NCBI GenBank assembly: GCA_963697835.1
Contig: CAVOPG010000001.1
Location: forward strand, 772,764-836,763
Direction: 5' to 3'
Source of the DNA: an uncultured Acidobacteriota bacterium
Lineage (GTDB): Bacteria; Acidobacteriota; Vicinamibacteria; Fen-336
DNA: 64,000 bases
Positions 9,517-60,909 of this stretch are shown here, in pieces. The notes under the pieces were generated by a model, which was not told where the DNA came from, did no database searches, and worked only from the letters and a program-made list of their open reading frames with translations. Each line of letters starts with the position of its first letter. Position 1 is the stretch's first letter. Position numbers and translations under genes: made by a program.

Positions 9517-9693
9517 ATGGAGCCGGAGATCCACGACGAGCTCGAGCGCCGGATCTACGAGACGATCATCTCGTTTCCGGGGCGGCTCGACGAGATGGAG
9601 ACGCGCAGCGAGGACAACTGCCGTCTGCTCGCGAGTCGTATCGCAGACCTCGTGCGGCAGCACGGAGGCTCGGGGACCGCAGGCCCCGCCTGA
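9517..9693 (+). CDS. Small hypothetical protein (58 aa)
   Basis: MEPEIHDELERRIYETII...; ATG 2 nt after the MFS stop, GGAGG upstream, GC3-rich codons. Confidence 0.45.
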   Translation: MEPEIHDELERRIYETIISFPGRLDEMETRSEDNCRLLASRIADLVRQHGGSGTAGPA

Positions 9694-9714
9694 AGGAACA
9701 GGCGGCGGCGAGCT

Positions 9715-9960
9715 TCATCTCCGGCCCTCCGGATCGTTCCTCGCGAGCAGCCAGCCCACGACGAAGAACACGGCCCCCACCCCCGTCAGCGCGACCATGA
9801 CCCGCAGTTGGCTGCCCGAGGACATGAACACGGCCCGCGTGACGAGTATCAGGCCGAAGAGCTGGAGACCGCGCCCGACGAAGTAGAGAGTCCAGCCGGT
9901 CCGGTTGGCGTTCTTTCGCCTCACGGTCGCAAGTCCCTTCGATGGGGGCGCCGACGGCAT
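9715..9960 (-). CDS. Small two-TM membrane protein
   Basis: [15 protein letters not shown] and [19 protein letters not shown] hydrophobic segments; start uncertain. Confidence 0.5.
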
Positions 9961-44776: not shown

Positions 44777-46052
44777 TCAGCCCTTCCACGGGTGAACCCA
44801 CGGGCCGCGGTAGTCGCGCTTGAGGAGCGCCGCCGCCGCCGGGTTGCCGCGCACCTCGTCGCTCGCGGCGTCCCAGTCCACGCGTCCGCCCGCCTTGAGC
44901 GCGATCATCGCGAGCTGGACCGCGGCCGTCGAGCGGTACGCGTCCTCCGGCGGGCAGGACACCGTGCCCCGCGTGCGCACCGCGTCGAGCCACTCGGCCA
45001 CGTGAGCCGTCTGCTGGTCGTTCTTCGCCTCGACCGCACGCCGCTCGGCGCCCTTCGCGGCCGGGATCACCTCGTAGCGGGCGTCGGTCAGGAAGACGGT
45101 CTCCTTCTCGCCGTAGAAGAACATGCCAATCGTCGTCTCGGGCGTGTACTCGGCCTGACCGAAGATGCGGTGGCTCCAGACGACCGGGCACGGGTCGAAC
45201 TCGAAGTGGGCGGTGAGGACGTCGGGCGTCGTGATGCGGCCCTTCAGCCCGTAGAGGCCGCCCGCGGACTGGATCGAGCGCGGCATGCCAAGGCCGAGGA
45301 CGGTGCGGATGGCGTCGATCCAGTGGATGCCCCAGTCCACGAGGTGGCCGTTGCCGTAGGCCTCCTCGAGGCGCCAGTGGAAGTGGCCGACCTGCGGGCT
45401 GTAGGGCAGCTTCGGAGCCGGGCCGCACCAGAGGTCCCAGTCGAGCGTCGGCGGCGGGTCGACCGGGCGTCGGGTCCACGAGCTCGGCCGGGTAGTGGAT
45501 CTGGGCGGCGACGGTCACGATCCTCCCGGCGTGACCCTCGGCGATGTACTTCGCGGCCTGGCGGATGGCCTCGCTCTGGCGGCGCTGGAAGCCGATCTGG
45601 ACGACCCGGCCGCTGGCCTTGGCGGCCTCGACCATCGCCCGCCCCTCGCGCACGTCGTAGGCCAGCGGCTTCTCGCAGTAGACGTCCAGGCCCCGGCGGC
45701 AGGCCTCGATGAACGGCAGCGCGTGCCAGTGGGGCGGGGTGGCGATGACCACCGCCTGCAGCCCCGGGACGTCGAGGAGCTCCCGCCAGTCCTTGAACGC
45801 GCGAGGCGACGCGGCCTTGCCAGCCCCGGATCCGCTCCGCCGCCTGCGAGGAGGTGCGCGTTGTCCACGTCGCAGATGCCGACCACCTCGACGCCGCCGG
45901 CCTTGAACGCCGCCTCCGTCACCACGAGGCCGTACCAGCCGCAGCCGATCACGCCGAGCCGGAGCGTCTCCTTCGTCTTCCTCCGCGGCGCCCGGACGGC
46001 CGAGGGCCGTGGCGCCGGCCGCGAGCGTGCCCAGGAACACCCGACGTTCCAT
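44777..46052 (-). CDS. Gfo/Idh/MocA oxidoreductase, Tat-exported (frameshifted)
   Basis: ERRVFL; GVIGCGWYG, IATPPHWH, YCEKP, QIGFQRR, DWGIH. Confidence 0.88.
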
Positions 46053-46147
46053 GGCCTGCCTCCCGTGCGTGGATCATAGTCCCGACTTCCCCGTGCTAGC
46101 ATCGCCGCGAGCGCGGCCCCGTCGGGCGGCGCCCCTCGGAGGCCCTC

Positions 46148-47304
46148 ATGAAAGCAGTGCTCTTCTCCCTCGGCGCGATCCTGGCGTGCGCCTTCGCTCA
46201 CCCCGGCGCCGGCGGCAGCGGCCGAGGGGCCGACGGTCCCGACCCTCGCGATCGGGGCGAAGGCCCCGGACTTCGACCTGCCCGGCGTCGACGGCAAGCG
46301 CTACACGCTCGCGAGCTTCGCCGCGGCCAAGGTGCTCGTGCTCGTCTTCACCGCGAACCACTGCCCGACCGCCCAGGCCTACGAGGAGCGGATCGAGAAG
46401 CTCGCACGCCGACTTCCGGGGCCGCGGCGTCCAGGTCGTCCTCGTCTCTCCGAACGACCCGCTCGCCCTGCGCCTCGACGAGCAGGGCTACTCGGACCTC
46501 GGCGACACGCTCGAGGAGATGAAGATCCGGGCGAAGGACCGGGGCTGGACCTTCCCCTACCTCTACGACGGCGAGACGGAGGCGATGTCGCGGCAGTACG
46601 GGCCGGTGGCGACGCCGCACGTCTTCGTCTTCGACGCCGAGCGGAAGCTGCGCTTCGCCGGGCGCGTCGACGACAACGAGAACCCGGCGAAGGCCACGAC
46701 GCACGACGCCCGCGACGCCATCGAGGCGGTGCTCGCCGGGAAGCCGGTGCCGGTCGAGACGACCAAGGTCTTCGGCTGCTCGGTGAAGTGGTCGGACAAG
46801 CGCGCCTGGGTGAAGGAGCGGGTACGAGAAGTGGGCGAAGGAGCCGGTCACCCTCGAGACGATCGACGAGGCGGGGGTCCGGGCCCAGGCGAGGAACGAG
46901 GGCGGGAAGAAGCTCCGGCTGATCAACGTCTGGGCGACGTGGTGCGGGCCGTGCGTGATCGAGTTCCCCGACCTCGTCTCCGTCCACCGGATCTACCGGG
47001 GCCGCGACTTCGAGGTGGTGACGGTCAACGCCGACGACCCCGGGCAAGCGCGAGAAGGCCCTCGAGTTCCTGAAGAAGCAGCAGGCCTCGACGCGCAACT
47101 ACGCCTTCGACAAGGGCGACCCCTACGCGCTCATCGAGGCGGTGGACCCGAAGTGGCAGGGGGCCCTGCCGCACACGATCGTCGTTGCCCCGGGCGGCGA
47201 GGTGATCTACCGGAGCGAGGGGGCCTTCGACACCCTGAAGCTGCGCAAGGCGATCGTCGGGTGGCTCGGACGGTACTACCACTCGATCGCCAGGAGGGAA
47301 GTGA
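46148..47304 (+). CDS. Exported double redoxin (AhpC/TSA plus TlpA-like) protein (frameshifted)
   Basis: APDFDLPG, NHCPTAQ, ATPHVF, FGCSVKW, NVWATWCGPC, GALPHT; end approximate. Confidence 0.82.
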
Positions 47305-47305
47305 G

Positions 47306-48146
47306 ATGCGCACGACACGGCTTTTCCCCGCGGTCATCCTCGCCTTGGCACCGCTGGCGTCCGCGCAGACGCCGCCGACCGGCGGGGCGGACCCCCGGGC
47401 CGGCCGGGGGTTCATCGCGACGCCGGTGTTCTCCGCGGAGGCGGACCAGCAGCTCCTCGCTCTCTTCGAGGGCCTGCGCGTCGCCGACGTGACCGACGGC
47501 ATGGACGCGGTGGGCCTGCCGAACGTGGGTCTCATGGACCCCGAGGTGCGGCCCGCTCTGGAAGGACACGCAGGACTTCACCCACCGCTTCATCGGGATC
47601 GCGGTCACCGCGCGCTACGTGCCGACGCAGCGCGCGCAGGCGGGGAAGCGGCCCGGTCGAGGAATACGACAAGTGGTCGGGAGAGTGGTACGACGCGCTC
47701 TCGCCCGAGCCGTTCCAGGACCTCCTCCGGCCCGGCACCGCCCTCGTCATCGACGACGCGGAGCGGGCCGACGTCGGCTCCATCGGCTCGAACAACATCC
47801 TGGCCTGGAAGAGCCGCGGGATGGTCGGCGTCGTCACGAACGCCACCGCCCGCGACACGGACGAGATCGTCACCGAGAAGGTGCCGCTCTACTTCCGCCG
47901 GCCGGGCCGCGGGATCCGGCCCGGCCGGAACGAGATCGAGTCGGTGAACCGCCCGATCGTCTGCGGCGGGGTGCTCGTCGTCCCGGGCGACGTGATCGTG
48001 GCCGACGGCGACGGCGTCCTCGTCGTCCCCCGCGCCGTCGCCGCCGAGGTGGCCCGCTACGCGAAGCGCATCCTCGAGACGACAAGGACGGCCGGCGCCA
48101 GCTCTACGAGAAGCTGGGCCTGCCCCCCGATCCTTCCATCAAGTAG
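47306..48146 (+). CDS. RraA/HMG-aldolase-family protein with signal peptide (frameshifted)
   Basis: LRVADVTDGMD, IGIAVT, IGSNN, ARDTDE, PGDVIVADGDGVLVVPR. Confidence 0.82.
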
Positions 48147-50265
48147 ACGAGAGGCCGGCCGTAGCCCCGCCTCCGGCTCCTCCCCGTCGGAGCAGGAGGA
48201 AGACGGCGAGGTAGAAGAGCAGGGCGACGGCGAGCAGGAAGCGGAAGCCGAGGATGAGCGAGAGGTACTCCGCCGTCCCCCCGAGGACTGCGCCGAGGAC
48301 GTTCGAGCCGTAGGCCTCGTAGAGGCGGGTCTCGTTCTCGATGAGCCGCGCGAAGATCAGGCCGCCGAAGTAGACCGGTCCCAGGAAGAGAGCCACGGCG
48401 GCGATCGCCCGCGCCCCGGGGGAGAGCCCGAGGAGCGCGTCGGCGGGCAGGATCGACGCGGCCAGGATGAGGCCGGCGAGGAGCGCCACGCAGGCGCCGA
48501 TGGGCACCCGCCACCGGGCGGCGGTGAGGTTGCCCAGCAGGACGAGGACGAGGATCCCGGCGAACACCACGGTGTTGACCCACCACGTGGAGCCGTAGAG
48601 GAGCGCCATGCGCACCACGTTGCTCGTCTCCAGCAGGAAGAATGCGGCGCCGAGGAAGAAGTAGGGCAGGCGGACCCGGCGCTCGCCGCGGGGGAGCACG
48701 AGGAGGGAGGCGGCGCTCATCGCCACCGCCACGAGCAGGAAGAAGACGTTGTGGCCGGGAATGCCCCGCTCGCGCAGGTACAGGAACGGCCAGTCGTCGG
48801 TCGGCACGAGGGCACGGCGGCGGGGGATCTCGGCGGGAAGGGAGCGCTCGTTAAGGTAGAGGACGCCGTTGGCGTAGCCCTTCCGGTCGGTCGTGAACAG
48901 GGTGGGGCGGGAGAAGCTGCGATCGAGGAGGGCGAGGAGCCGCTCGTGGATCCACGCCTCGTTGCTCGCGAAGCTCAAGGCGACGCGCCCGCCCGGGGCG
49001 AGGAGCCGCCGCACCTCGGCCATCGCCTCCTGCGTGTAGATGAAGTTGTCGAGGCGCACCGAGGAGAAGGCGGACAGCAGGCGGTGGCTGTCCAGGAAGC
49101 CGAAGACCACGAGCGCGTACCGGCCGCTCGGGGCCCGATGGAAGTAGGACCGCGCGTCGTCGATCACGAGGGTGACGCGGGGGTCCTCGTAGGGCCGCTC
49201 GGCATGGAGCCTCCGCCCGAGGGCGGCGATGGCGGGGTCGATCTCCACCGCGGTCACCGGCCTGTCCGTCCGGCGCAACGCCGCCGCCACGTCGTTCCCG
49301 GTGCCGGCTCCCACCACCAGCACGTCGCCCGGGGGCAACGCCCCCATCCCCGCGTAGTCCGCGTACGGTGCGTCGTAGAACGACCGCCACCCGGACAGGA
49401 AGGCGTGCTCCCGCGGGCGCGGCCGGAGGTCGAGCATCATCTGGTGGTAGTCGCTGTTCACCGTCACCACGTGGCCCACCGTCCCTCCGAGCTCGACGAA
49501 GCCGTGGCTGTCGGCATCCAGGACCCGGGTGAGCGGCGCGACCGAGATGCGGTAGTAGGGGGACCAGACGTAGCGCTGCGACTCCGTGTGGGTGGCCGCC
49601 ACGAGGGCCACCCCGAGGAGCGCGGCGAGGGCTCCGTCCGGCAGGGGCCGGGGCAGCATGAGCACCAGGAGGAGCGTGCCGACGGCAAACCACGCGGCGG
49701 GCGAGGTCTGCCACCAGGACAGGAGCGCGAAGAGGCCGATCCCCGCCAGGCTGCCCGCGACCTCCATGCTGTAGGCGCGCAGCGGCGGGTGCGTGCGGAA
49801 GAGCCGGCCCAGGTACTGGCCGAACGCGGCGAAGACGGCGGCGGTGGCGCCGTAGACGAGGACGAGGACGAGGCCGACGGAGACGATCCGGCTCGCCTCC
49901 GCTCCCGGCGAGGCGATGCCCAGCGGCGCCCCGATCCAGATGTACTCGTCGCGACCGGACGGGTTCGGGTGCCACAGCCGGCCGAGCCAGACGCCGAGCA
50001 TGGTCACGAGAGCGGCGAGCGGCGCGATCAGCCGCTCGAGGCGTACCGGGTAGCGCGTGGCGAGGGCCCCGACGCCGAGGCCGAAGAAGGCGGAGATCAG
50101 GACCAGGTTCGAGAAGTAGGCCACGATCCGGATCGACGCCCCCAGCCAGCGGATGAGGACGAGCTCCCAGAAGAGCGCCGCCATCCCGCAGAGGAACAAT
50201 CGGCTCGCGTTCGCGTCCCACCCGCGGCGCGGCGGCACGGTGTCGGCGTCGGGATCGCTGGTCAT
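48139..50265 (-). CDS. Multi-TM spermidine-synthase-like SAM-dependent methyltransferase
   Basis: WELVLIRW, WSPYYRI, VLVVGAGTGNDV, VEIDP, DDAR, PTDDWPFLY, YGSNVLGA. Confidence 0.85.
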   Translation of the reverse strand: MTSDPDADTVPPRRGWDANASRLFLCGMAALFWELVLIRWLGASIRIVAYFSNLVLISAFFGLGVGALATRYPVRLERLIAPLAALVTMLGVWLGRLWHPNPSGRDEYIWIGAPLGIASPGAEASRIVSVGLVLVLVYGATAAVFAAFGQYLGRLFRTHPPLRAYSMEVAGSLAGIGLFALLSWWQTSPAAWFAVGTLLLVLMLPRPLPDGALAALLGVALVAATHTESQRYVWSPYYRISVAPLTRVLDADSHGFVELGGTVGHVVTVNSDYHQMMLDLRPRPREHAFLSGWRSFYDAPYADYAGMGALPPGDVLVVGAGTGNDVAAALRRTDRPVTAVEIDPAIAALGRRLHAERPYEDPRVTLVIDDARSYFHRAPSGRYALVVFGFLDSHRLLSAFSSVRLDNFIYTQEAMAEVRRLLAPGGRVALSFASNEAWIHERLLALLDRSFSRPTLFTTDRKGYANGVLYLNERSLPAEIPRRRALVPTDDWPFLYLRERGIPGHNVFFLLVAVAMSAASLLVLPRGERRVRLPYFFLGAAFFLLETSNVVRMALLYGSTWWVNTVVFAGILVLVLLGNLTAARWRVPIGACVALLAGLILAASILPADALLGLSPGARAIAAVALFLGPVYFGGLIFARLIENETRLYEAYGSNVLGAVLGGTAEYLSLILGFRFLLAVALLFYLAVFLLLRRGGAGGGATAGLSST

Positions 50266-50428
50266 GCGGCCCAGGATAGCCGACCGAGCCCCCGGATCGG
50301 ACAAGCCGGGGTCAGCGACAGGCCGGGCCGCAGCGGGACGCCCGCTCCGGGACGTGTTGAGCGCCCGAACTCGTTCTTAATCTAGTCATCCAGCGCGCGG
50401 TGTGGCGCGTCCAATACGCGTCCATCCC

Positions 50429-50459
50429 TTGACTTGGTGGCGGATGCCGGGGCTAGGCT
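50429..50459 (+). promoter_or_regulatory. Putative sigma-70 promoter of leader 1
   Basis: TTGACT-N19-TAGGCT, 14 nt before the ATG at 50474. Confidence 0.5.
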
Positions 50460-50473
50460 GTTGTCAACATCCC

Positions 50474-50761
50474 ATGTTGTGCTTGAAGCGCAAGGCGAGC
50501 CTCGCCCTCGTCGCGGCGGTCCTGCTGGCAGCCCTCGCCGGCGGGTTCGTCGGCGACTTCCTCCACACGGACGACGGCTGCACGTTGGAGACGCACTGCC
50601 TCGCGTGTCAACGGGCAGTCGGGTCGCTGGCCGTCGTCGTCGCGAACCTCGGGGTCCCGGCGACGCTCCAGCCCCTCGGACGCGTCAGCGACCCGCCCAC
50701 CGTCGCCCTCGCCCCCGCCGCGATCCGCACCGGGGTCCCCCGGGGTCCTCCTCAGGCCTAG
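50474..50761 (+). CDS. Leader ORF 1: DUF2946/CruR-like putative metal-sensing arrest peptide (95 aa)
   Basis: Hydrophobic N-terminus, HTDDGCTLETHCLAC, 44-aa spacer, C-terminal RGPPQA; lies upstream of a TBDR. Confidence 0.8.
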   Translation: MLCLKRKASLALVAAVLLAALAGGFVGDFLHTDDGCTLETHCLACQRAVGSLAVVVANLGVPATLQPLGRVSDPPTVALAPAAIRTGVPRGPPQA

Positions 50762-50849
50762 CTCCCGAAGAGAGCGGCTGGCTCCGCCAGCCAGGGGCGC
50801 TCTTCCCGAAGAGGGGAGCGCACGGCCTTTTTCGTCGCTAGCTGAGGAG
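50748..50849 (+). promoter_or_regulatory. Putative SD-sequestering RNA structure
   Basis: CTCCTCAG (50748-55) is the reverse complement of CTGAGGAG (50842-49). Nested stems GCTCCC/GGGAGC and GGCTGGC/GCCAGCC lie between them. Confidence 0.65.
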
Positions 50850-50859
50850 TTGTCCAACC

Positions 50860-53309
50860 ATGCGGTCCATTCCCACGCGTTTCGTCGCATTCGCCCTCGC
50901 CCTGCTGTTCCCGGCGCTGGCCGCTCGCGAAGCCCATGCCGCCGCCGGCTCCATCCGCGGACACGTTCTCGGTCCCGACGGGCGCGCCGTGTCCGGTGCG
51001 ATCGTCGAGCCTTCGAAACGACATCACCGGCTTCAAGACCGAGACCACGACCGACGCCGCCGGCGCGTACCAGTTCTTCAACGTGCCCTTCAACCCGTAC
51101 GAGATCCACGTCGAGGTCCAGGGCTTCGCGCCCGTCCACCGGCCGGTCGACGTGAGGTCGCCCGTTCCACTCGATGTCCCGATCTCGCTCAAGCTCGCCG
51201 GCGTCAAGGAGGCGGTGACCGTGACCGCCGAGAAGACCGCGGCGCAGCTCGAGACGGACACGTCGATGTCGCACGTGGACATCGACAAGTCCTACATCGC
51301 CCGCGCCCCGGCGAGCGTCGCCTCGCGGGCCATGGAGGAGCTGATCACCGCCACCCCCGGCTTCGCCAAGGACGAGAACGGACGCTACCACTTCCAGGGC
51401 TTCCACAGCCAGGGCCAGTTCGTGATCGACGGGCAGACGATCTCGGACCAGACGGGCGTCACGTTCTCGAACTCGATCGACCCCGGCATCGCCCAGTCGA
51501 TGGAGGTCATCTACGGGAACGTCCCCGCCGAGTACGGCGAGAAGGTCGGCACCGTCGTCAACCTGGCCACGAAGTCCGGCCTCGGCACTCCCTTCCACGG
51601 CGATGTCTACGGCGGCGCCGCCCGCTACGCCACCTACGAGGGCGGCCTCGCCCTCGGGGGCGGATCGCGGAACCTGGCGGCCTTCGCCTCGCTCAACGGC
51701 TCGTGGTCCGACCGCTTCCTGGATCCGGTGAACTTCGACAGCCTGCACAACACCGGCGACACCCAGCGCGGCTTCCTGCGCCTCGACTACGCCTCCGACG
51801 ACCTCCGGGACCAGGTGCGCTTCACCGTGCTCGCCGGCCGGACGAACCGCGACGTGCCGAACACCTTCACGCAGGAGGACGCCGGCCAGGACCAGCAGGT
51901 GAGGAGCCGGGACCAGAACTACAACCTGGGCTGGACGCACCTCGTGTCGACCAAGGCCACGCCTCGACGCGAGCGCCTTCGGCCGGGTGTCCACCTTCGA
52001 GCTCCTGCCCTCGGCCGGCGACACGCCGGTCACCGCGACCTCGGACCGCAGCCTCGACAACTACGGCCTGAACGCGGCGGTGACCTGGGTTCCGAACCCG
52101 CACCACGAGGTGAAGGTGGGAGGCGTCGTCAAGCGGTTCCCGATCGACGAGACGTTCAGCTTCGGCCTGACCGACCCCGGCTTCAACGATCCCGAGGCCG
52201 ACGGCTACAACCCCGACCTGGCGCCCTACGATCTCACCCGCGGCGGCCAGCCGCTCTTCTTCCAGGACAAGAGGACCGGCACGTACGCGGCCGGCTTCGT
52301 CCAGGACAACGTCCACTACGGCGGGCTCACCGCCAACCTCGGCCTACGCTACGACCACAACAACCTGCCGACGACCGAGGACCAGCTCCAGCCGCGCGTC
52401 GGCCTGGCCTACTACGTCAAGGCGAGCGGGACGGTGCTGCGGGCGTCGTACAACCGGATCTTCGTCACCCCCGAGTACGAGAACATCCTCTTCGGCTCGT
52501 CGGAGCTGGCCGCTTCCGTCGTCCCTCCCGAGGTCAAGGACTCGCGCGAGCTGGGCGGAGGGGTGCTGCTCAACCGCTCGGAGCGCCAGAACGCCTACCT
52601 GGTGGGCGTGCAGCAGGCGATCGGGCCGAGGCTCCGTCTCGACGCCGACTTCTGGTGGCGCCGGGCGACGTACCCGGCCGACCAGGACCAGTTCCTGAAC
52701 ACCGGGATCGTCTTCCCGATCACGTTCACCGAAGGCCGCCACAACGGCTGGGACGTCCGTCTCGACCTCGCACCGACGCACGGCGTCCGCGGCTTCGTGT
52801 CCCTCGGCCACACCCACGCCGTCTACGTGCCGCCGCCGGTGGGCGGGCTCTTCCTGGACGTGGAGGCGATCGACGCCATCACCGGCGGGCCGTTCCTGAT
52901 CGACCACGACCAGAAGCTCCAGGCCCAGGGCCAGCTCTTCTGGGACCTCGGGAGAAGCGGGGCCTGGCTCGGCGCCAACGTGCGCTACGACTCCGGCCTC
53001 GTGACCGACGCCGACCCCGAGGAGCTGCGGCAGAACCCCGACGACTTCTTCGCCGCGCCCTACGTCGTGGTCCACACCGGCGGCGATCTCGATCCGAACC
53101 GGATCAAGGAGCGGACGATCGCGAGCTTCTCCGCCGGCCTCGACCTCGCCCGGCACGGCGTGCCGCTGTCGCTCCAGGCCGACCTGCTGAACGCCTTCGA
53201 CACCCAGGGCGTCTACAACATCCAGTCGGTCTTCGGCGGCACGCACGTGATCCCGCCGCGGACGCTGGCCGTGCGGCTGCGCTACCGCTTCGGCGGCAAG
53301 CGGAGCTGA
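50860..53309 (+). CDS. TonB-dependent receptor (frameshifts near 51010 and 51960)
   Basis: Signal peptide, carboxypeptidase-regulatory-like domain, DENGRYHFQGFH, IDGQTISDQ, NLGLRYD, PRVGLAY, GGTHVIPPR. Confidence 0.9.
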
Positions 53310-53325
53310 AGCGATATCGCTGCCT

Positions 53326-53353
53326 GCAGGGGGCGGCTTGTTCCGCCCCCTGC
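53326..53353. terminator. Hairpin between convergent units
   Basis: GCAGGGGGCGG-CTTGTT-CCGCCCCCTGC, 11-bp perfect stem; no clear U-tract. Confidence 0.55.
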
Positions 53354-53381
53354 CGCCGGCAAAAAGTCGCGGAGCGGCGGC

Positions 53382-54253
53382 TCAACGCCCGGTGGTGACC
53401 GCGTCGGTCGCGGCCCCGCCGGCCTGAGCCTTGGCGTAGTCGAGCTGGCTGCCCCGCAGGCTGTGGGGGACGAGGTAGACCGCGATCATCACGAGCGCGG
53501 CGGCGACGGTCGTCCACCGAGCGACGCGGTCGGTCGGATCCTGGCGCCGCCCCAGCACGACGACGGCCGCCACCCAGGCCAGCCACATCCCGAGCGTCTT
53601 GTTGTCGGTCAGGTCGGTGCCGAACGGCCAGCCCGTCCAGAAGGCCCCGAAGGCGTACTTCTGGACGATCGGGCCCAGGACGAGCCCGCCGATCGCGATT
53701 CCCACGACCGCGACCCACGCGTATCGCCGGGACTCGGGCCGGCCGAGGACCGCGGCGAGAGCGGCCCGGACCCCGATCATCATCGACACGAACATCGTCA
53801 CCACGTGCGGGATCAGCACGAGGGCCGGCACGTCGCCCTTGAAGCGCATGACGACGGGCTCGCCTTCCGGGCACCCGGACCGGCCCGGTGGGCGTCGCGA
53901 GCGTGACGAAGTACTCGACCTTCCCGGCCGGCGGCTGGGTCGGCAGGAGGGCCGCGAGCGTTCCGCCCTCGCGGCTCATCGCCACGTCGCGGAACGGCTC
54001 GCCGGTGCGGGTAGCGCCGGTAGTGCACGACGCCCGCGACGCCGTCGGGCGCCGAGATCGCCACCATGAACGGCTCGCCCGAGACCGACGAGCGCAGGAG
54101 GCGCCACCGCACGTCCTGCCCGGCGATCTCGGTCCGACCGCGACGCGGGTGGGTGGGCCCGGTGAGGCGCTGCCAGACGGCGGCGGCCACCATGAGAGCG
54201 AGCGCGGCGAGCCAGAGGAGGGCGGCCGATCGGTGGCTTCGCGGGTCAGGCAC
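53382..54253 (-). CDS. Conserved hypothetical membrane protein (frameshifted)
   Basis: WQRLTGPTHP, LPTQPPAGKVEY, RFKGDVP, LIPH, GPIVQKYAFGAFWTGWPFGTDLTDNK, PHS. Confidence 0.75.
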
Positions 54254-54290
54254 CGGCGAAAAGTAGCACGGCTTCGATCGTCGGGGAAGG

Positions 54291-55139
54291 TCAGGCCGGC
54301 TGCGCGGCGCCTCGCCGGAGGAGCGGCCTCACCGCCGCCATGAGGATCAGGACGAGGCCGAAGGTGCAGACCATGGCCGCCCCGGTGGGCAGGTCCAGCT
54401 TCACCGAGAGGTAGATGCCGAGGGCGGAGACGACCGTTCCCATCGTCCAGCCGATCGCGAGGCGCGGGCCGATGCGGTCGGCGTAGAGCATGGCCGCCAC
54501 CGAGGGCACGATCAGGTAGCAGAAGACGAGCAGCACCCCGGCGATGAGCACCGACGAGGTCACCACGAAGCCGAAGGAGGCGTAGAAGAGGAAGTCCCAG
54601 AACTTGACGGAGATCCCGTCGCGCTCGGCCTTCTCGTGGTCCATGGAGATGGCCAGGAACTGCCGGCGGAAGACGTAGTGGAAGGCCCCGATGACCGCGT
54701 AGAGGGCCGCGGTCTTGGCCACCTCCCACCACGAGACGGCCAGGATGTTGCCGACCAGCATGTCCTTGAGGTGCTCGCTCTCCGAGGTGGCCTTGCTCAT
54801 CGCCAGGATCGTGGCGGCGGAGGCCACCGCGTAGGCGATGCCGATGATGGCCTCCTGGGGGATGCGGGCCCGGCGGATCCTGATCGTCGAGAAGATGGCC
54901 GCCCCGATGAAGGTGAAGACGAGGCCCGTCCAGTAGACCCAGGGCCCGTGGGGGTCCTGCCCGGTGAAGGGAAGCAGGATCGCGATGGTCGAGCCGAGGG
55001 CCGCGATCTGGGCGAGGGAGAGGTCGACGAAGATGACGCCGCGCTCGACCACGTGCACGCCGAGGTAGGCGTGGATGCCGGTGAGGATCAGGCTGGCCAC
55101 GAAGGGAGCGGCCAGGAACTTCAGGATTTCGAGGTCCAT
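54291..55139 (-). CDS. Metal ABC-3-type permease (ZnuB/MntB-like)
   Basis: HAYLGVHVVERGVIFVDLSLAQIAALG, QEAIIG, GVLLVFCYLIVP, DLPTG. Confidence 0.9.
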   Translation of the reverse strand: MDLEILKFLAAPFVASLILTGIHAYLGVHVVERGVIFVDLSLAQIAALGSTIAILLPFTGQDPHGPWVYWTGLVFTFIGAAIFSTIRIRRARIPQEAIIGIAYAVASAATILAMSKATSESEHLKDMLVGNILAVSWWEVAKTAALYAVIGAFHYVFRRQFLAISMDHEKAERDGISVKFWDFLFYASFGFVVTSSVLIAGVLLVFCYLIVPSVAAMLYADRIGPRLAIGWTMGTVVSALGIYLSVKLDLPTGAAMVCTFGLVLILMAAVRPLLRRGAAQPA

Positions 55140-56058
55140 CTACTTCGCCCCCGTTTCCTTGATCACCGCGACGAGCAGCTTGAGGTCGTAGTCGAAGAGC
55201 GCGATGTAGTCCGTGATCTCCTTCTCGCCCCCGACCGAGGGCGGCATCACGAGCACCTTGGCGCCGGTCTCGCGGCCGATCGACTGCGGCGTCTTGAGGT
55301 CGAAGTAGGGCTCGACGAGCAGGATCTTCACGTTCTGCCGCTTCATCTCGCCGATCAGCTCGATCGTGTGGCCGGGCGAGGGCGGGATGCCGGGCCGCGG
55401 CTCGACGTAGCCGATCACGTCCAGGCCGAAGCGATCGGCGAAGTTGGGCCAGGAGCGGTGGTAGGTCACGACCTTCAGGCCCTTGTAGGGGGCCATCATG
55501 CGCGTCCCACCGCTTCTCGGCTTCGGCCAGCCGCTTGTCGAAGTCGGCGTAGCGGGTCGCGAAGTAGGCCGCGTCGGCGGGCGCCATGCGGGCGAGCTTG
55601 TCCGCGATCGCCTTCGCGATGCGCCGGCCGTTGTCCGGGTCGAGCCAGTAGTGCGGGTTCCCGAGGGGGTGGACGTCGCCCATCGCGCGGGTGATCTGGC
55701 CGGTGGGGATCTCGAGGATCTTCGCGGTGAGCGAGGCGTCGAGGTAGCCGTCCGCCCCCACCTGGATCTTCGCGTTGCGGCTCTGCTGGATGAGCGGCGG
55801 CAGCCAGCCGATCTCCAGCTCCCGGCCCACGGCCACGAGGAGGTCGGCCTTGGCGAGCTTCAGGATGAAGCTGGGCTTGGCCTCGACGAAGTGCGGGTCC
55901 TGGTAGCCGCGGGCGATCGTCTCCACCTTGACCCGGTCGCCGCCCACCTGGCGGGTGAGGTCGGCCAGGTCCTCGGTGCTGGCGATGACGTTGACGGCGG
56001 CGCCGGCCGGCGGCACGACGGCCAGGGCGGCGAGAGTGGCGATGCTCAGGAGTCTCAT
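55140..56058 (-). CDS. Metal ABC substrate-binding protein (ZnuA/TroA cluster A-I-like); frameshift near 55500
   Basis: QDPHF, GDVHPLGNPHYWLDP, TYHRSW, EPRPGIPPSPGH. Confidence 0.9.
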
Positions 56059-56070
56059 GGCGACCTCGAT

Positions 56071-57390
56071 CTAGAAGGGATGGGCGCCGTGGGCGCCGAT
56101 CGCGAAGAGGAACTGGAAGAGAAGCTCGTCGGCCGGGCTGTCGTTCGGCGAAGCTCGTGCGGCGGTACTGGGCGCGGACCAGGCTGAACTCGCTCGGCCA
56201 GTAGGTCAGGATGAACGAGCCGCCCGTGTCCCGGAGCCCGGGCGCGTCGGCCCGCTCCGAGTTGTCGTAGCGAAGGCCGGCGGTCCAGCGCCTCCCGAAC
56301 TGGTACTCGAGGAAGCCATAGCCGCCGACGGCGTCGACCGCCTCCGGCTGCTCCCGGCGGCTCCACGTCACCTCGCCGCGCGCGAGGAAGTGCGTGTAGA
56401 TCGAGCGTCGCAGGGGCTTCCACCGCAGCGTGGCGTCGACGCCGAGGAGGCGCGTCGTGGTGTCGTCGGTGACGCCGTTGTGGCCGTACGCGATCGAGCC
56501 GCCGAGGTCGACGTTGGTCGACTCGCCGAGGTCCTGGTAGGCGCGCAGGTGGCCGACGTAGGCGAGGTCGCCTCGCGTCGGGGCCTTGAACACCTCGGAG
56601 TTGCCCTGGTAGACCTGACCGGTCGCCTCCAGGAAGAGCCACGGGTTCGGGATGAGGCGGGCGACCGAGATCCCGGCGTCCGCGAGGCCGTCCTCGCCGC
56701 CGAGTGAGGTTCGTCGACACGAGAGGCCGGTCGAGCGAACGGGAGCGTGTGCGGGTGCTGCCCGTTCACCTTGCCGAAGGCGTCGCGCATCTTCCCGACC
56801 TTCGTGAGGAAGCCGCCGGGGAGGGTCGGGAACGTGATGTAGCCCTCCTCGAGCGCCACCTCGTCCGGCGCCAAGGTGACGAAGAAGTCGGCCCGCGCGT
56901 ACGGATCGACGACGGCCTGGAAGGCGAGCTCCGCCTCCTGCATGTTGAGCGACGGCTCCCCGCCTCCCGGCGACTGGCCGGCGGCTCCGACGAAGTTGCC
57001 GATGGCCGCGATGTCGGGGTTGAAGACCTTCGAGGCGGCGGCTCCGCCCCCGTAGACGGGAAGCGCGCCCGGGGTGCCCTCGCCCGCGGCACCCGGCGGG
57101 ACGGCCGCCGTCGCCGGTTGCGACGTCGGCTCAGGAGGCGGCGGGGCCGGCGGGGCGGCGGGGGTTCCCTCGAGCGCCGCGATCCGGGACTCGATCGCCG
57201 CCATGCGGCTGCCGTACTCCTGGCGCAGGGCCTCGAGATCGTGCCTCAGCTGGGAGATCTCCTCGCCGGCGGGGGGCGCGGCGCTCTGTGCCGGCGGGCT
57301 CTCGGCGGCACCGCCGGAGCGGGGGGCAACGACCGTCAGGACGCTGCCGGCCAGGGTGAAGGCCGTGACGACGCGAGGCCATCGACGCAT
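56071..57390 (-). CDS. Outer-membrane beta-barrel protein with His-containing C-terminus (frameshifted)
   Basis: Signal peptide, coiled coil, FNPDIAAIG, EAELAFQAVVDPY, EEGY, FGKVNGQHPH, PSEFS, C-terminal IGAHGAHPF. Confidence 0.82.
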
Positions 57391-57486
57391 GTGTCCCTCG
57401 AGCACGGAACCGGATCCCATCGATGCCCGATCCCGGCCGCGCTGTGAAGAGCGGCGGCCGGGTCCGGCCGGAGCGGACTGGAACGG

Positions 57487-57763
57487 TCAGGCGCGGGGGC
57501 GGCCCGCGCGACGAGACGCTGCGGGGGGCTTCGTCTTCGAGCGATGGCGGGAGCACGGGGGCGACCCGGTCCACGGCGGCCACGACCCGCGGCAGGGAGA
57601 ACGCCTCCGTCACGACGCCGGGGGTTCCGAGCCTGAGGAGACAGGCGTTGCAGTGCGTCTCGACGACGCAGCCGTCGTCCGAGTGGACGAGCGACTCTTC
57701 GAGAATCGCTACGGCCACGCCGAGCAGGACGAGCGCGACGACGACCAGTCTCCTGGGCTGCAT
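57487..57763 (-). CDS. Leader ORF 2: paralogue of leader 1 (RGPPRA-stop if one G of the run at 57495-99 is removed)
   Basis: Hydrophobic N-terminus, HSDDGCVVETHCNAC, 44-aa spacer, RGPP. Confidence 0.78.
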
Positions 57764-57776
57764 TCGGGACCAGTCA

Positions 57777-57806
57777 ACTCTAGCCGACGGCACTCCGGCC
57801 GGTCAA
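57777..57806 (-). promoter_or_regulatory. Putative sigma-70 promoter of leader 2
   Basis: TTGACC-N18-TAGAGT, 13 nt before the ATG at 57763. Confidence 0.55.
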
Positions 57807-57882
57807 TCGACACCCCGATCCCATCATCGAGGCAGTCGCTGGTCGGCAGGCGAGCCCGATCCGTCGTCGTCGTCGGCCACGG

Positions 57883-57912
57883 TTGACGGGCGAAAAAGCG
57901 GGCCGGTATACT
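57883..57912 (+). promoter_or_regulatory. Sigma-70 promoter of padR
   Basis: TTGACG-N18-TATACT, followed by the inverted repeat CTCG-N10-CGAG (possible PadR operator). Confidence 0.6.
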
Positions 57913-57936
57913 CGTGTAGGTAACCGAGGGGAGCTG

Positions 57937-58266
57937 ATGAGCAAGCCGACCGATCTCGTCCAGGGCACGCTGGACCTCCTGATCCTGAGGGTGATCGCCG
58001 TCGAGCCGATGCACGGCTGGGCCATTGCTCAGCGGATCCGGCAGATGTCCAGGGACGAGCTGCGGGTGGGGCAGGGCTCCCTGTACCCCGCCCTGCACAA
58101 GCTCGAGCAGCAGGGCTGGATCGAGGCCGAATGGGCGGCCAGCGAGAACAACCGGCGGGCGAAGTACTACACGCTGACGAGAGCCGGCCGCAAGGCGCTG
58201 GAAAGCGAGACGGCGCAGTGGGAAAGGCTGTCGGCAGCCATCTCGCTCGTCGTGCGTCGAGCCTGA
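57937..58266 (+). CDS. PadR-family regulator, acidobacterial type
   Basis: QGTLDLLIL, HGWAI, GSLYPALHKLE, SENNRRAKYY. Confidence 0.95.
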   Translation: MSKPTDLVQGTLDLLILRVIAVEPMHGWAIAQRIRQMSRDELRVGQGSLYPALHKLEQQGWIEAEWAASENNRRAKYYTLTRAGRKALESETAQWERLSAAISLVVRRA

Positions 58267-58278
58267 GGACGCGACGCA

Positions 58279-60909
58279 ATGCGGTGGACCACGAAGCTCC
58301 GTCTCCGTTCTCGCTCGCTTCTCCAGGCATCCCGCGTCGAGGAGGAGCTCGACGAAGAGCTGGGTTTTCATCTCGAGCGTCTCACCGACGAGAACATCGC
58401 GAACGGGATGACGCCGGCGGATGCCCGCTACGCCGCCCTTCGCGAAATGGGCGGGCTCGACCAGCGGAAGGAAGAGGGCCGCGACGCGCGGGGCCTGGCG
58501 GCCTTCGACAACGTCCGTCAGGACCTCAGATACGCGGTCCGGGGGCTTCGGAAGAGCCCGGGATTCACAGGCGTCGCCGTACTGTCCCTCGCGCTCGGCA
58601 TCGGCGCGAACACGACGATCTTCACCTTCGTCAATGCCGTCCTGCTCCGCCCCCTGCCGTATCCCGCTTCGGACCGGCTGGTCATCCTGCGTGAGCAGCC
58701 GGCTGGCTCCGCCGGCACCGTCGCCGTCCATCCGCTGAACTTTCTCGAGTGGAGCGCTCGCGCGAGATCCTTCGAGGCGCTCGCGCTGGTACAGACTCCT
58801 CCGCTCAACGTGATGGGGGCGAGCGGCGCCGAACAGGTCACCCGGGTCCAGACGACATCGGAGCTGTTTCGCGTCTTCGCCGTTCAACCGATCCTGGGGC
58901 GAGTGTTCACCCGGGAAGAGACACGGCCTGGGGATGGCGCCGTCGTGATCCTCGGCCACGGCTTGTGGCAGCGTTGGTTCGGCGGCGATCCGACGGTGCT
59001 CGGGCAGAGACTCGCCGTGCGCGAGGGTTCGCTCACGATCGTCGGCGTGGCCCCCCCCGGACTTCGAATCGGCCCGTTCGAGCCCGACGCGTACACACCC
59101 TTGCCGATCGATCCAGCGAGGCCGGACTCGATCGGCTCGCGCTCGTTCCAGTGCTACGGCCGGCTGAAGGGAGGGGTCGGCGTCGAGGCCGCCCGCGCGG
59201 AAATGGCCGTCATCGCTTCCTCCCTCGCTCGTCAGTACCCGCTGGACGAAGGATTCGGCGTGTTCGTGGCCGGGCTGCACGAGTATCTCGTCCGGGAGGG
59301 GCGTCCGGCCTTGCGCCTCCTGATGGCGGTCGTCGCGATCGTGCTCGTGATCGCGTGCGTGAATCTCGCCGGTCTGCTCATGGCCCGCGGCATTCGCCGT
59401 CGCGGTGAGTTCGCCGTGCGCGCGGCGCTCGGTGCCAGCCGCGCGCGTCTCGTCGCACAGCTGGTCATCGAGAGCCTCGTGCTGTCCTCACTCGGCGGCG
59501 CGGTCGGACTCGCCCTCGCGTACTGGGCGACGCGGGCGCTGGAGACGCTCACCGGCGGAGCGCTCACCGTCGGCAGCGCGGAGCCGATCCGCCTGGAATC
59601 CACCTGTCTGGTCTTCACGCTCCTGGTCGCCACCCTGACCGCGCTCTCGTTCGGGCTCGTTCCCGCCTGGCACGCGAGCCGCGCCGAGCCGCAGACCGCG
59701 CTCGGAGAGCGGACCCGGGGAGGCACCCTCGATCGCCGGCAACATCGGCTGAGGAGCGCGCTGGTGGTGAGCGAGGTCGCCCTGGCCGTCGTGCTGCTCG
59801 TGGGCGCCAGCCTGCTGCTGCGCACTTTCGGGCACCTCGTCCGCGTCGATCTCGGCTTTCAGCCCGCCGACACGATCACCATGGGGCTCTTCCTCGGCGA
59901 GCGTCCGGCCGAAGCTCGAATCGCACTCGTGGACCAGATCCTCGAACGCGTCGAGGCGTTGCCCGGAGTCGAGGCCGCGAGCACGATCCAGTTCCTGCCC
60001 CTGTCGGGGATGGACTGCGGAACCGGCTTCTGGCCCGAGGGACAGGCGCCGGGGGATCCGTCGGGCGCGTTGCCGACGGGATGCTCGTTGGTCAGCCGTG
60101 GGTACTTCGCCGCCATGGGGATTCCCGTCCTGGACGGGCGCCCCTTCGAGCGCCGCGACCGCCTGGGCAGCCCGCGCGTGCTGGTGGTGAACCAGTCGTT
60201 CGCGAAGCGGTACTTTCCTGGAGGTCGTGCGCGGGGACGCCGCATCCTCGTGGAGTCGTCGAACCAGGCGCTCGCGGAGATCGTCGGAGTCGTCGGCGAC
60301 GTTCGCCACAACGGATTGACGTCCGAGCCGCTGCCGACGGTGTTCCTTCTGCACGCGCAGACGCCCGGCTACATCACGAACCTCGTCGTCCGGACCTCCG
60401 GGGACACTGGCGCGCAGGCGGCCGCCATCCGGCAGGCCATCCGCGAGGTGGATCCGAGCCAGGCCGTGTCGGCGGCGAGGACCATGGAGCACTACGTCGG
60501 AGACGAGCTCCGGAGGCCCCGCATGTACGCCGCGCTGGTGGCGTGCTTCGCGGTGCTCGCGGTGATCCTGGCGGGCGTCGGAATCTACGGCCTCGTGGCC
60601 TACGACGTCACCCAGCGGACGCACGAGATCGGCATCCGAATGGCACTCGGCGCCTCGCGTCGCCACGTCTTCCGCGCGACGTTCTCCCAGGGCGTGCGGC
60701 TCACCTTCACTGGCCTCGCCCTCGGCGTCGTGGCGGCGGCAGGGCTTCGGGGAGTGGTCTCGGCCCTGCTCTTCGGGGTCACACCCGGCGATCCGGTCAG
60801 CTACCTGCTCGGCGCCGTCGTGTTTGCCGCGGTCGCCCTCGTGGTGGCGGCGCTGCCTGCCCGCCGGGCGTCCCGCGTGGATCCGGCTACGGCGTTGCGA
60901 TACGAGTGA
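58279..60909 (+). CDS. ADOP-family duplicated MacB/FtsX-like ABC permease
   Basis: [60 protein letters not shown]. Confidence 0.93.

Follow-up and report, generated by a model that had tools for sequence, protein, structure and literature searches.

Nascent peptides that sense metals have been described recently (CruR in 2022; CutF in 2023 and 2025), so far for copper and in Proteobacteria. Considered here are two small open reading frames (ORFs), leader 1 and leader 2, which head two convergent sets of transport genes in an uncultured bacterium of the phylum Acidobacteriota, class Vicinamibacteria (GenBank assembly GCA_963697835.1). The whole stretch analysed, called the window, comprises 64,000 nucleotides (nt) of contig CAVOPG010000001.1 (positions 772,764 to 836,763, forward strand), and coordinates are those of the window unless another locus is named.

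In layout the closest described relative is CruR (Bp2923) of Bordetella pertussis. This DUF2946 protein carries an export signal, a CXXC motif, 45 further residues, and the sequence RAPP three residues from its end. CruR stands first in the operon of a TonB-dependent transporter; its arrest of the ribosome is relieved by copper, which permits Rho termination. Homologues have been listed from beta-, gamma-, and alpha-proteobacteria and from a few Planctomycetes, Firmicutes, and Deinococcus, and the main text of that paper uses none of the terms zinc, ZnuA, and Acidobacteria (PMC9426467). CutF of Rhodobacter capsulatus is likewise an exported DUF2946 protein, in which copper induces stalling and this melts a stem-loop shielding the next ribosome-binding site (PMC9973294; bioRxiv 10.1101/2025.02.05.636593), with disulfide formation proposed as the force that relieves stalling (bioRxiv 10.1101/2025.02.05.636593). 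More broadly, Fujiwara et al. (2025) describe RAPP and RGPP as especially robust arrest motifs, which ordinary proteins avoid, and small ORFs with such an ending as enriched upstream of TonB-dependent receptors and copper-related or other metal genes across phyla; in CruR arrested in vitro, the two proline codons occupy the P and A sites. The main text of that survey does not mention zinc, ABC transporters, porins, or Shine-Dalgarno (SD) sequences, and Acidobacteriota figure in it only as a proteome set (PMC12992588).

By analogy with these systems, leaders 1 and 2 are probably arrest leaders that tie the uptake genes downstream of them to a metal. The narrower proposition, that each is an arrest leader controlling its downstream genes, deserves rather more confidence. 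The evidence lies in a family of similar peptides, in their spacing and gene context, and in a codon bias and an RNA complementarity at the arrest site, all of which were observed directly by computation.

The two leaders and their family

Leader 1 (50474-50761, + strand) is an ORF of 95 amino acids (aa) whose N-terminal helix (transmembrane or signal) precedes a putative metal motif, a spacer of 44 residues, and RGPP-Q-A-stop. It opens with MLCLKRK, continues through a hydrophobic stretch into HTDDGCTLETHCLAC, and after 44 residues ends in RGPP, Q, A, and TAG, the stop codon (50759-50761) standing two codons past RGPP. The putative metal site, H31-T-D-D-G-C36-T-L-E39-T-H41-C42-L-A-C45, is encoded at 50564-50608 (+), and the arrest motif R90-G-P-P93 at 50741-50752 (+; codons CGG GGT CCT CCT). 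Leader 2, its paralogue on the opposite strand (57763-57487, once corrected by one base), follows the same plan of HSDDGCVVETHCNAC, 44 residues, and RGPP, with the putative metal site H27-S-D-D-G-C32-V-V-E35-T-H37-C38-N-A-C41 at 57641-57685 (-) and the arrest motif R86-G-P-P89 at 57497-57508 (-; codons CGC GGG CCG CCC). The two share 39% identity across 67 residues (BLASTP, E 3e-10) and are the only family copies in their own 6.96-Mb genome. In each, as read from the sequence, the N-terminus starts with basic residues, after which come about 20 hydrophobic ones. An AlphaFold2 (AF2) model of leader 1 (mean predicted local distance difference test score, pLDDT, 79.9) has a helix at residues 2-29, predicted to be transmembrane (pLDDT 91-96), a loop holding H31-C36, a short helix at 37-50 that bears E39, H41, C42, and C45, and a coil from 51 to 95 in which pLDDT is still fairly high. 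The original prediction, made from the letters alone, had described paralogous ORFs, hydrophobic at the N-terminus, in which H[TS]DDGCxxETHCxAC is followed by 44 dissimilar residues and RGPP; this description is confirmed in both leaders.

The ending of leader 2 depends on the one-base correction, since as printed it has no stop codon behind RGPP, a point against its reading as an arrest leader: the frame reads on (RGPPPRL...) to 57131 and yields 210 aa. When one C is dropped from the run of five at 57495-57499, the ORF closes as RGPP-R-A-TGA with its end at 57487. Measured from the first Asp of DDGC through the stop codon, 13 of 17 intact leaders (leader 1 and those of loci L001-L015) span 192 nt, three span 195 nt, and one spans 198 nt; corrected leader 2 spans 192 nt. 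Single-base frame breaks relative to intact orthologues also interrupt the window's receptor, porin-like, and ZnuA-like genes; the four conserved window genes broken by single-base shifts lie at 50860-53309, 57390 to about 56060, 56058-55140, and 54253-53382. The genome is assembled in only nine contigs, yet is just 65% complete by marker genes. Frame-broken conserved genes together with such completeness in nine contigs suggest an indel-prone long-read assembly, and an indel-rich assembly suggests in turn that ORF calls elsewhere in the window need care. The correction, which had been proposed at the outset and was reproduced here with RGPP two codons before the stop, is judged likely on sequence grounds because the 192-nt family length, the neighbouring frame breaks, and the low marker completeness all favour it. 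No public-read contig of useful identity over the C run or the end of leader 2 was found (85% likeness; 17 runs, none listed as RNA, best word share 0.16).

A word-indexed search returned 38 matches, nearly all of 92-96 aa and one of them named as belonging to a metagenome-assembled genome (MAG) of Vicinamibacteria, and an exhaustive profile search of 1.84 billion representatives returned 210 proteins with E <= 1e-3 (146 of them with E <= 1e-10), nearly all of 88-100 aa. Judged by this resemblance, which is beyond chance, the leader family is real. In an unfiltered alignment of 39 sequences (A1), residues H31, D33, D34, G35, C36, E39, H41, C42, and C45 are invariant, and R90, G91, P92, and P93 are conserved at 90% or more. 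Both motifs are present in 168 of 183 family proteins, the other 15 being truncated, frame-shifted, or variant in motif. Within the 168 the arrest motif is RGPP in 131, RAPP in 36, and RSPP in one, and the tail behind it has two residues in 123 and three in 32. The spacer has 44 residues in 132 proteins, 45 in 31, 43 in two, and 46 in three, so that the fixed spacer proposed from two sequences is borne out by the profile survey at 44-45 residues. Its sequence is poorly conserved (mean column identity 23% in alignment A2). The arginine of the arrest motif is encoded by CGC (47), CGG (40), CGT (5), CGA (4), and AGG (1), and the glycine by GGC, GGT, and GGA about equally; this synonymous variation points to selection on the peptide.

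Genomes with a match number 8 of 401 in a sample of the phylum and 41 of 61 among relatives, 8 of those 41 holding two copies. A convergent pair of leaders about 7 kb apart also occurs in one other genome of the same genus (G013). Standard Pfam annotation overlooks these genes, and the family brings to notice about 200 small genes that had gone unannotated.

Transport genes behind the leaders

Loci were drawn from species-representative genomes (15 loci, all from Acidobacteriota/Vicinamibacteria MAGs) and from metagenomes (80). They provided 95 leaders with an arrest motif and the window two more, and 73 of these 97 had at least 600 nt of downstream sequence and could be scored. All 73 head a transport gene on the same strand, namely a TonB-dependent receptor (TBDR) of the window's kind (type 1) at 35, a ZnuD-like receptor (type 2) at 15, a porin-like operon at 22, and an ArsP permease at one. 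Where the contig extends far enough, the porin-like gene at the 22 loci is always followed by genes for a ZnuA-like protein and an ABC-3 permease. Linkage to transport genes had been named beforehand as one test of the proposal, and it holds at every scorable leader; since many of the contigs are closely related, the figure speaks for consistency and not for independent events. The leaders do not stand upstream of sec or yidC genes, the downstream genes being receptors, porin-like genes, ZnuA/ABC-3 genes, and the one permease. They differ in this from ApdA, ApdP, and SecM, which monitor Sec/YidC and head sec genes.

In the window, leader 1 is followed by a TBDR gene (50860-53309, +; CarboxypepD_reg, Plug, and barrel) that is spread over three frames by two frame breaks and whose intact orthologue (L003:6305-8698) encodes 797 aa. 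Leader 2 is followed by an operon at 53382-57390 (-), with counterparts at L005:6325-10499 and L013:6299-10390. Its first gene (56060-57390, -, with the 3' end approximate) encodes a porin-like outer-membrane beta-barrel with an N-terminal coiled coil and was traced through frame breaks by tblastn to intact orthologues. The porin-like protein matched no Pfam or NCBIfam family, and PDB sequence searches with it and with the type-1 receptor returned nothing useful. A moderate-confidence AF2 model of an intact orthologue (pLDDT 61) consists of the coiled coil and a beta-barrel, and Foldseek ranked OprP (2o4v, E 4.7e-6) and OprO best, with a template modelling (TM) score of about 0.4. Next come the gene for a ZnuA/AztC-like metal-binding protein (55140-56058, -; PF01297 in two pieces, with a frame break near 55495-55500), the gene for an ABC-3 (ZnuB/AztB-like) permease (54291-55139, -; PF00950, E 5e-35), and, last in the operon, a gene for a conserved hypothetical membrane protein (53382-54253, -), which is split into 146 and 155 aa here and is a single ORF of 297 aa in L005. 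These assignments by Pfam, tblastn, and AF2 agree with the cargo first noted, a TBDR behind leader 1 and a porin-ZnuA-like-ZnuB-like operon behind leader 2, as does the finding of one leader design both before an outer-membrane receptor and before a porin with an ABC importer, in a convergent arrangement that recurs in G013.

Several side observations concern these genes. The 297-aa membrane protein belongs to no Pfam family and has look-alike clusters from Planctomycetota, Bacteroidota, and Gemmatimonadota in the Atlas. In the porin-like protein (L013:6299-7516 and 14 orthologues, alignment A4), a C-terminal IGAHGAHPF and residues H179 and H181 are invariant, and the invariant histidines of this unclassified porin family are possibly a metal-selective feature. 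Locus L011 has two tandem leaders on the same strand, one (6063-6264) heading porin/ZnuA/ABC-3 genes and the other (9579-9777), directly 3' of the permease gene, heading a ZnuD-like receptor. At L064:494-1566 a family leader stands ahead of an ArsP_1-type permease (PF03773) and not ahead of a receptor or porin. In one MAG, L010:6238-6342 and L014:6193-6297 are nearly identical through the leader end, the intergenic region, and the first codons of the next gene, beyond which one continues as a TonB-dependent receptor gene and the other as a porin-like gene, which suggests that a leader cassette was duplicated and recombined ahead of different cargo. Beside leader 2 in the window, two genes divergent from it (57883-60909, +) encode a regulator, which we take to be of the PadR family from its translation, and a large FtsX/MacB-like permease; a strong promoter-like site lies at 57883-57912, and no link to the leaders was seen.

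Relationship to CruR, CutF, and other arrest peptides

The features that mark the CruR/CutF class are present in the leaders, namely an N-terminal signal or transmembrane segment, a CXXC motif (invariant as C42-x-x-C45), a spacing of about 45 (+/-2) residues, and the first position in the operon; a RAPP-like motif two or three residues from the C-terminus is present in leader 1 and, only when corrected, in leader 2. With CruR the likeness extends to the place before a TonB-dependent transporter, the export signal, the fixed spacer (45 residues there, 44 here), the Arg-x-Pro-Pro motif (three residues before the stop there, two here, with RAPP itself in the minority of family members counted above), and the long intergenic region that follows, so that the resemblance originally proposed to DUF2946 leaders is upheld at the level of architecture (PMC9426467). 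CruR differs in its length of 145 aa against the 92-96 aa, mostly ending in RGPP, of the present family, whose motif is extended to H-x-D-D-G-C-x-x-E-x-H-C-x-x-C and whose members are acidobacterial, stand also before a porin/ZnuA/ABC-3 importer, and score under the Pfam cut-off.

With CutF the leaders would share the plan of an exported nascent-chain metal sensor, a C-terminal proline motif that stalls the ribosome, and an anti-SD/SD structure that shields the next ribosome-binding site. CutF in contrast has CXXXC and PPP, is EF-P-sensitive, switches a detoxifying oxidase on in response to copper, and has its anti-SD in a downstream stem-loop, whereas here the anti-SD would lie within the arrest codons (PMC9973294; bioRxiv 10.1101/2025.02.05.636593). 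Because the cargo here is for uptake, the opposite sign of control would be expected. ApdA, ApdP, and the surveyed ORFs are alike in that RAPP or RGPP lies close to the C-terminus of a small protein that is secreted or membrane-bound, and the Streptomyces examples have conserved Cys and His (PMC12992588). CzcI of Cupriavidus metallidurans is a DUF2946 protein before a Zn/Co/Cd system, which shows that the DUF2946 class is not tied to copper alone; it differs in heading an efflux pump and in having no C-terminal proline motif (PMC9973294).

Profile comparisons place the family at the edge of this class, and some of them count against its membership. The PF11162 gathering cut-off is 23.7 bits; leader 1 reaches 9.9 bits (E 1.6) and leader 2 reaches 8.2 (E 5.4). 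A comparison by hhalign of alignment A2 with one classical-type peptide of the same genus, P0185 (CSAC, 45 residues, RAPP, three residues; 19.6 bits in Pfam), the lone classical sequence used, gave 31% probability over 18 columns around H..C..C. Sub-cut-off Pfam scores and this probability leave shared architecture demonstrated, and not homology to CruR and CutF. In the PF11162 alignment, both leaders span profile positions 61-117, from CXXC to the end, 47 of 139 family members match at E <= 1 (best E 2.1e-4), and one Atlas cluster of 95-aa acidobacterial proteins carries PF11162 on 54% of its members. A search seeded with P0185 retrieved only itself, and a six-frame PF11162 search of 31 related genomes returned mostly low-complexity noise and one match above the cut-off; three loci from it (L018, L019, L024) were inspected and are not leaders. 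The same-genus genome G014 has a classical-type DUF2946-like ORF (L020:1489-1827, -) upstream of a gene for an FG-GAP repeat protein, and by this observation the genus carries both classical and HTDDGC-type leaders.

We read the leaders, from these sequence comparisons, as a divergent acidobacterial branch of the known CruR/CutF class and not as a new principle; the family would lie on the fringe of DUF2946 and be CruR/CutF-like in its working. The distinct subfamily with three Cys and two His that had been proposed therefore stands as a real family with an extended motif, and falls as a separate invention, since it shades into DUF2946. The novelty first claimed for the principle was overstated, CruR, CutF, and the 2025 survey of RAPP and RGPP being already in print. 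Acidobacterial members might already be included among the similarity-network clusters of PMC9973294 or in Table S1 of PMC9426467. Possible novelties are the set of ligands, the phylum, the cargo of importers, the probable metal, and an anti-SD formed by the arrest codons.

Putative promoters and predicted pairing of the arrest codons

Ahead of leader 1, a promoter-like TTGACT-19 nt-TAGGCT (50429-50459, +), read from the sequence, ends 14 nt before the ATG, which would leave a very short 5' untranslated region; a consensus scan did not call this site because its spacer is 19 nt long. Ahead of leader 2, TTGACC-18 nt-TAGAGT (57777-57806, -; 9 of 12 matches, shuffle mean 0.0 sites) ends 13 nt before the ATG. 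Most related loci share the pair TTGAC...TAnnnT, which ends some 10-14 nt upstream of the leader ATG, and with promoters so placed the leaders are probably translated from near-leaderless transcripts. Nothing besides this pair is shared upstream of about 85 leaders, and no AT-rich palindrome was seen there, which agrees with the earlier failure to see a Fur or Zur box (no formal Zur/Fur matrix scan was made and a Zur gene was not sought). At L003, L007, L012, and many metagenome loci, a conserved CAGTATAT lies about 20 nt upstream of the leader -35 element; it occurs where a divergent porin operon without a leader of its own shares the region, and its other strand, TATACT, is perhaps the -10 element of the divergent promoter.

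Between leader and cargo lies a structured gap. Leader 1 is separated from the TBDR gene by 98 nt with GC-rich hairpins (50762-50859, +; SD GAGGAG at 50844-50849) and leader 2 from the porin-like gene by 96 nt (57391-57486, -; SD GAGGGA before the ATG at 57390), and intergenic lengths across loci have a median of 96 nt and a range of 56-141. The CCUCCU at the two proline codons of leader 1 is complementary to the GAGGAG of the receptor gene. In both the minimum free energy and centroid folds, GCUAG-CUGAGGAG (50837-50849) pairs with the leader-1 end from the proline codons to the stop (50748-50763).

Proline codons at the arrest site are strongly biased to CCU. CCT makes up 101 of 194 proline codons at the arrest site, 34 of 531 elsewhere in the spacers, and 165 of 2191 (7.5%) in 75 downstream ORFs, and the pair CCT CCT occurs in 30 of 85 unique leaders vs 5 of 178 PP pairs elsewhere. 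Among 28 unique type-1 sequences, T fills both proline wobble positions (one invariant, one at 90% or more) and the neighbouring glycine wobble is free; RNAalifold retains CUCCUC:GAGGAG pairing in 25-28 of the 28. Pairing was also compared within and between loci, from the proline codons to 12 nt past the stop against the region before the next start, among 39 representatives of less than 75% identity. Leader ends bind their own pre-start region better (-22.17 vs -18.60 kcal/mol; 0 of 10000 permutations), and three controls, an upstream coding segment and two with reversed sequence, were non-significant (1098, 1203, and 2027 of 10000). The leader-end/SD duplex reaches -25.6 kcal/mol for leader 1 against a cross-locus median of -17.6, and -22.5 kcal/mol for leader 2 against -17.7. 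One intergenic hairpin is well supported (95% paired; four of seven pairs compensatory).

A number of results weigh against an RNA switch built on this pairing. The leader-end/SD core supplies no covariation because its six base pairs never vary, and the helix extension seen in leader 1 is neither general nor conserved in register. When 15-nt segments are ranked by duplex energy with the SD region, a method too noisy for GC-rich sequence, the one over the proline codons comes out best in only 13 of 83 loci. In partition-function folding, masking the footprint of the arrested ribosome lifts the mean unpaired probability of the SD only from 0.21 to 0.26; the SD stays mostly paired, and a rise of 0.2 or more appears in 5 of 41 cases vs 1 of 41 for the control. 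For leader 1 the value goes from 0.12 to 0.13, and for leader 2 it drops from 0.15 to 0.11. Leader 2 and its closest kin have CCG or CCC codons at the arrest site, and slow decoding could be the purpose of the CCU bias instead. Folding models thus weakly support an RNA switch by SD pairing, and sequestration of the SD by the arrest-site region is somewhat doubtful as the main output.

Termination by Rho in the intergenic region, as in CruR, is the alternative that fares best, and would leave arrest in place and make the complementarity of leader end and SD incidental. The mechanism is established for CruR, which likewise heads a TonB-dependent transporter (PMC9426467), and it fits the long intergenic regions, those of both leaders being free of any intrinsic terminator that could be found, as well as the small effect of masking and the C-rich coding region of the leader spacer (C 0.43, G 0.32). 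Typical rut sites are C-rich and poor in G, unlike these intergenic regions, which show no such bias (C 0.35, G 0.33) and form many stable hairpins, and the codon bias and the preference of leader ends for their own SD regions indicate a selected RNA pairing. Because Rho does not exclude an SD mechanism, the two could act together; Rho termination with incidental complementarity is nonetheless rather doubtful. A permissive Rfam scan of 49500-58500 returned a chance snoRNA only (E 0.85) and no known riboswitch or leader.

The metal

On sequence evidence the chances that the metal is zinc are judged to be even. Zinc is favoured by the AztC/ZnuA-like binding protein with three histidines, the AztB-like permease, the His-bearing porin, and the ZnuD-like receptors behind sister leaders. 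The binding-protein orthologue finds its best NCBIfam match in AztC (2e-30), followed by MntC (9e-28) and ZnuA, all below the curated cut-offs, and three of its histidines (in DPH, PHYW, and YHRSW) align to the His positions of Synechocystis ZnuA (1pq4/2ov1; motif columns DPH, PHxW, HxSW). Three His ligands are a mark of zinc binding proteins, and the manganese protein MntA has Glu at the third of these positions. The best NCBIfam match of the permease orthologue is AztB, again below the curated cut-off. The type-2 receptor, which stands behind sister leaders, matches Neisseria ZnuD (4rdr) at E 8e-47 and the copper receptor OprC at E 7e-15.

Against a zinc uptake system stand several facts, beginning with the position of every zinc-family match under its curated cut-off and of MntC close to AztC. 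The window's own type-1 receptor had no informative match in NCBIfam or PDB sequence searches. The characterised relatives of the leader class all sense copper. Cluster A-I zinc importers (ZnuABC, AztABCD) have permease and ATPase encoded together, but no ABC ATPase gene was found with Pfam and NCBIfam in the window operon or among the scanned genes of its L005 and L013 counterparts (no search was made elsewhere in the genome), and a literature search of limited coverage found no zinc-responsive DUF2946 or RAPP leader.

Arrest leaders of the same type could instead sense copper, with the receptor and the ABC system serving copper or a copper chelate. Besides the precedent of the class, CXXC is a recognised Cu(I) motif, Cys/His sites bind copper well, and OprC is the second-best structure for the type-2 receptor, in addition to the silence of the type-1 receptor on zinc. 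Copper is nevertheless unlikely, since the binding protein shows the three-His zinc pattern, ZnuD is much the better match to the type-2 receptor, and three Cys and two His with invariant Asp and Glu are unlike the CXXC of CruR. ZnuA/ABC-3 systems are not known to import copper.

Leader peptides or functional proteins

That the small ORFs encode metal-binding proteins that are exported or anchored in the membrane and serve, for example, as a chaperone or an accessory subunit, with RGPP playing no regulatory part, is very unlikely. An export signal, a well-conserved metal motif, and a mean pLDDT that is fairly high even in the coil speak for such a protein, and small periplasmic metal proteins are common in operons. 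The 44 residues behind the motif, however, hold their length and not their sequence, which suits a ruler better than a folded domain, and the length of the tail is conserved although the tail would be unmade at arrest. The leader gene also always comes first and is followed by a structured gap of about 100 nt. Moreover, RGPP and RAPP, generally avoided (PMC12992588), are here fixed two or three codons before the stop.

A Cys motif that reports periplasmic redox state or disulfide formation, with folding pulling the chain from arrest, has a precedent in the disulfide model of CutF (bioRxiv 10.1101/2025.02.05.636593) and thioredoxin/TlpA-like genes near some loci (window 46009-47500; L005:10501-11985) in its favour, and is less likely still, given an odd number of invariant cysteines (three), the invariant His, Asp, and Glu around them, and cargo for metal transport.

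A proposed model for leader-controlled uptake

If leaders 1 and 2 are metal-linked arrest leaders, as preferred here, each would be translated off a near-leaderless transcript, its N-terminal hydrophobic segment would engage the membrane or the export machinery, and the ribosome would arrest with its P and A sites occupied by the two RGPP proline codons. The 44-residue spacer, conserved in length and not in sequence, could then serve as a ruler that sets the His/Cys motif at or beyond the tunnel exit during arrest, a role proposed by reasoning only, and the motif would bind metal on the ribosome-attached nascent chain.

The arrested ribosome would cover the final 15 nt of the leader, which run from the proline codons to the stop. 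As the covered stretch of leader 1 is the best complement of the SD, arrest would keep the receptor gene translatable, and it would probably also shield the transcript from Rho. A footprint reaching to the stop codon could explain why the length of the tail is conserved even though the tail is unmade at arrest. On release, termination two codons further on would let the SD site close and the gene be turned off. The analogy with CruR and the logic of uptake genes lead us to expect that metal binding releases arrest, and release is slightly favoured over induction. Both leaders would answer one signal, by which outer- and inner-membrane import would be regulated together.

The boldest form of this model takes the leaders as the first zinc-sensing arrest peptides, in which a mini zinc-finger of three Cys and two His on a membrane-tethered chain, 44 residues from the peptidyl-transferase centre, would pull that chain free of RGPP arrest, CCU CCU would double as the anti-SD, and two copies would replace a Zur-type repressor. 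In its entirety this is on the unlikely side, if not strongly so.

Significance

The leaders would offer a clean natural system in which to ask if a metal site that folds beyond the tunnel frees an arrested ribosome; in engineered constructs, a Zn-finger is reported to relieve SecM arrest. Effects of peptide and RNA would be separable, since synonymous changes at the two proline codons alter the RNA alone. If the zinc-type reading is true, the design of metal-sensing nascent peptides would reach another metal and ABC importers, in a poorly studied soil phylum. In the boldest form of the model, a sensor, a brake, and an RNA switch would be combined in one leader of about 290 nt, two copies of which would co-regulate zinc import through the outer and inner membranes in Vicinamibacteria.

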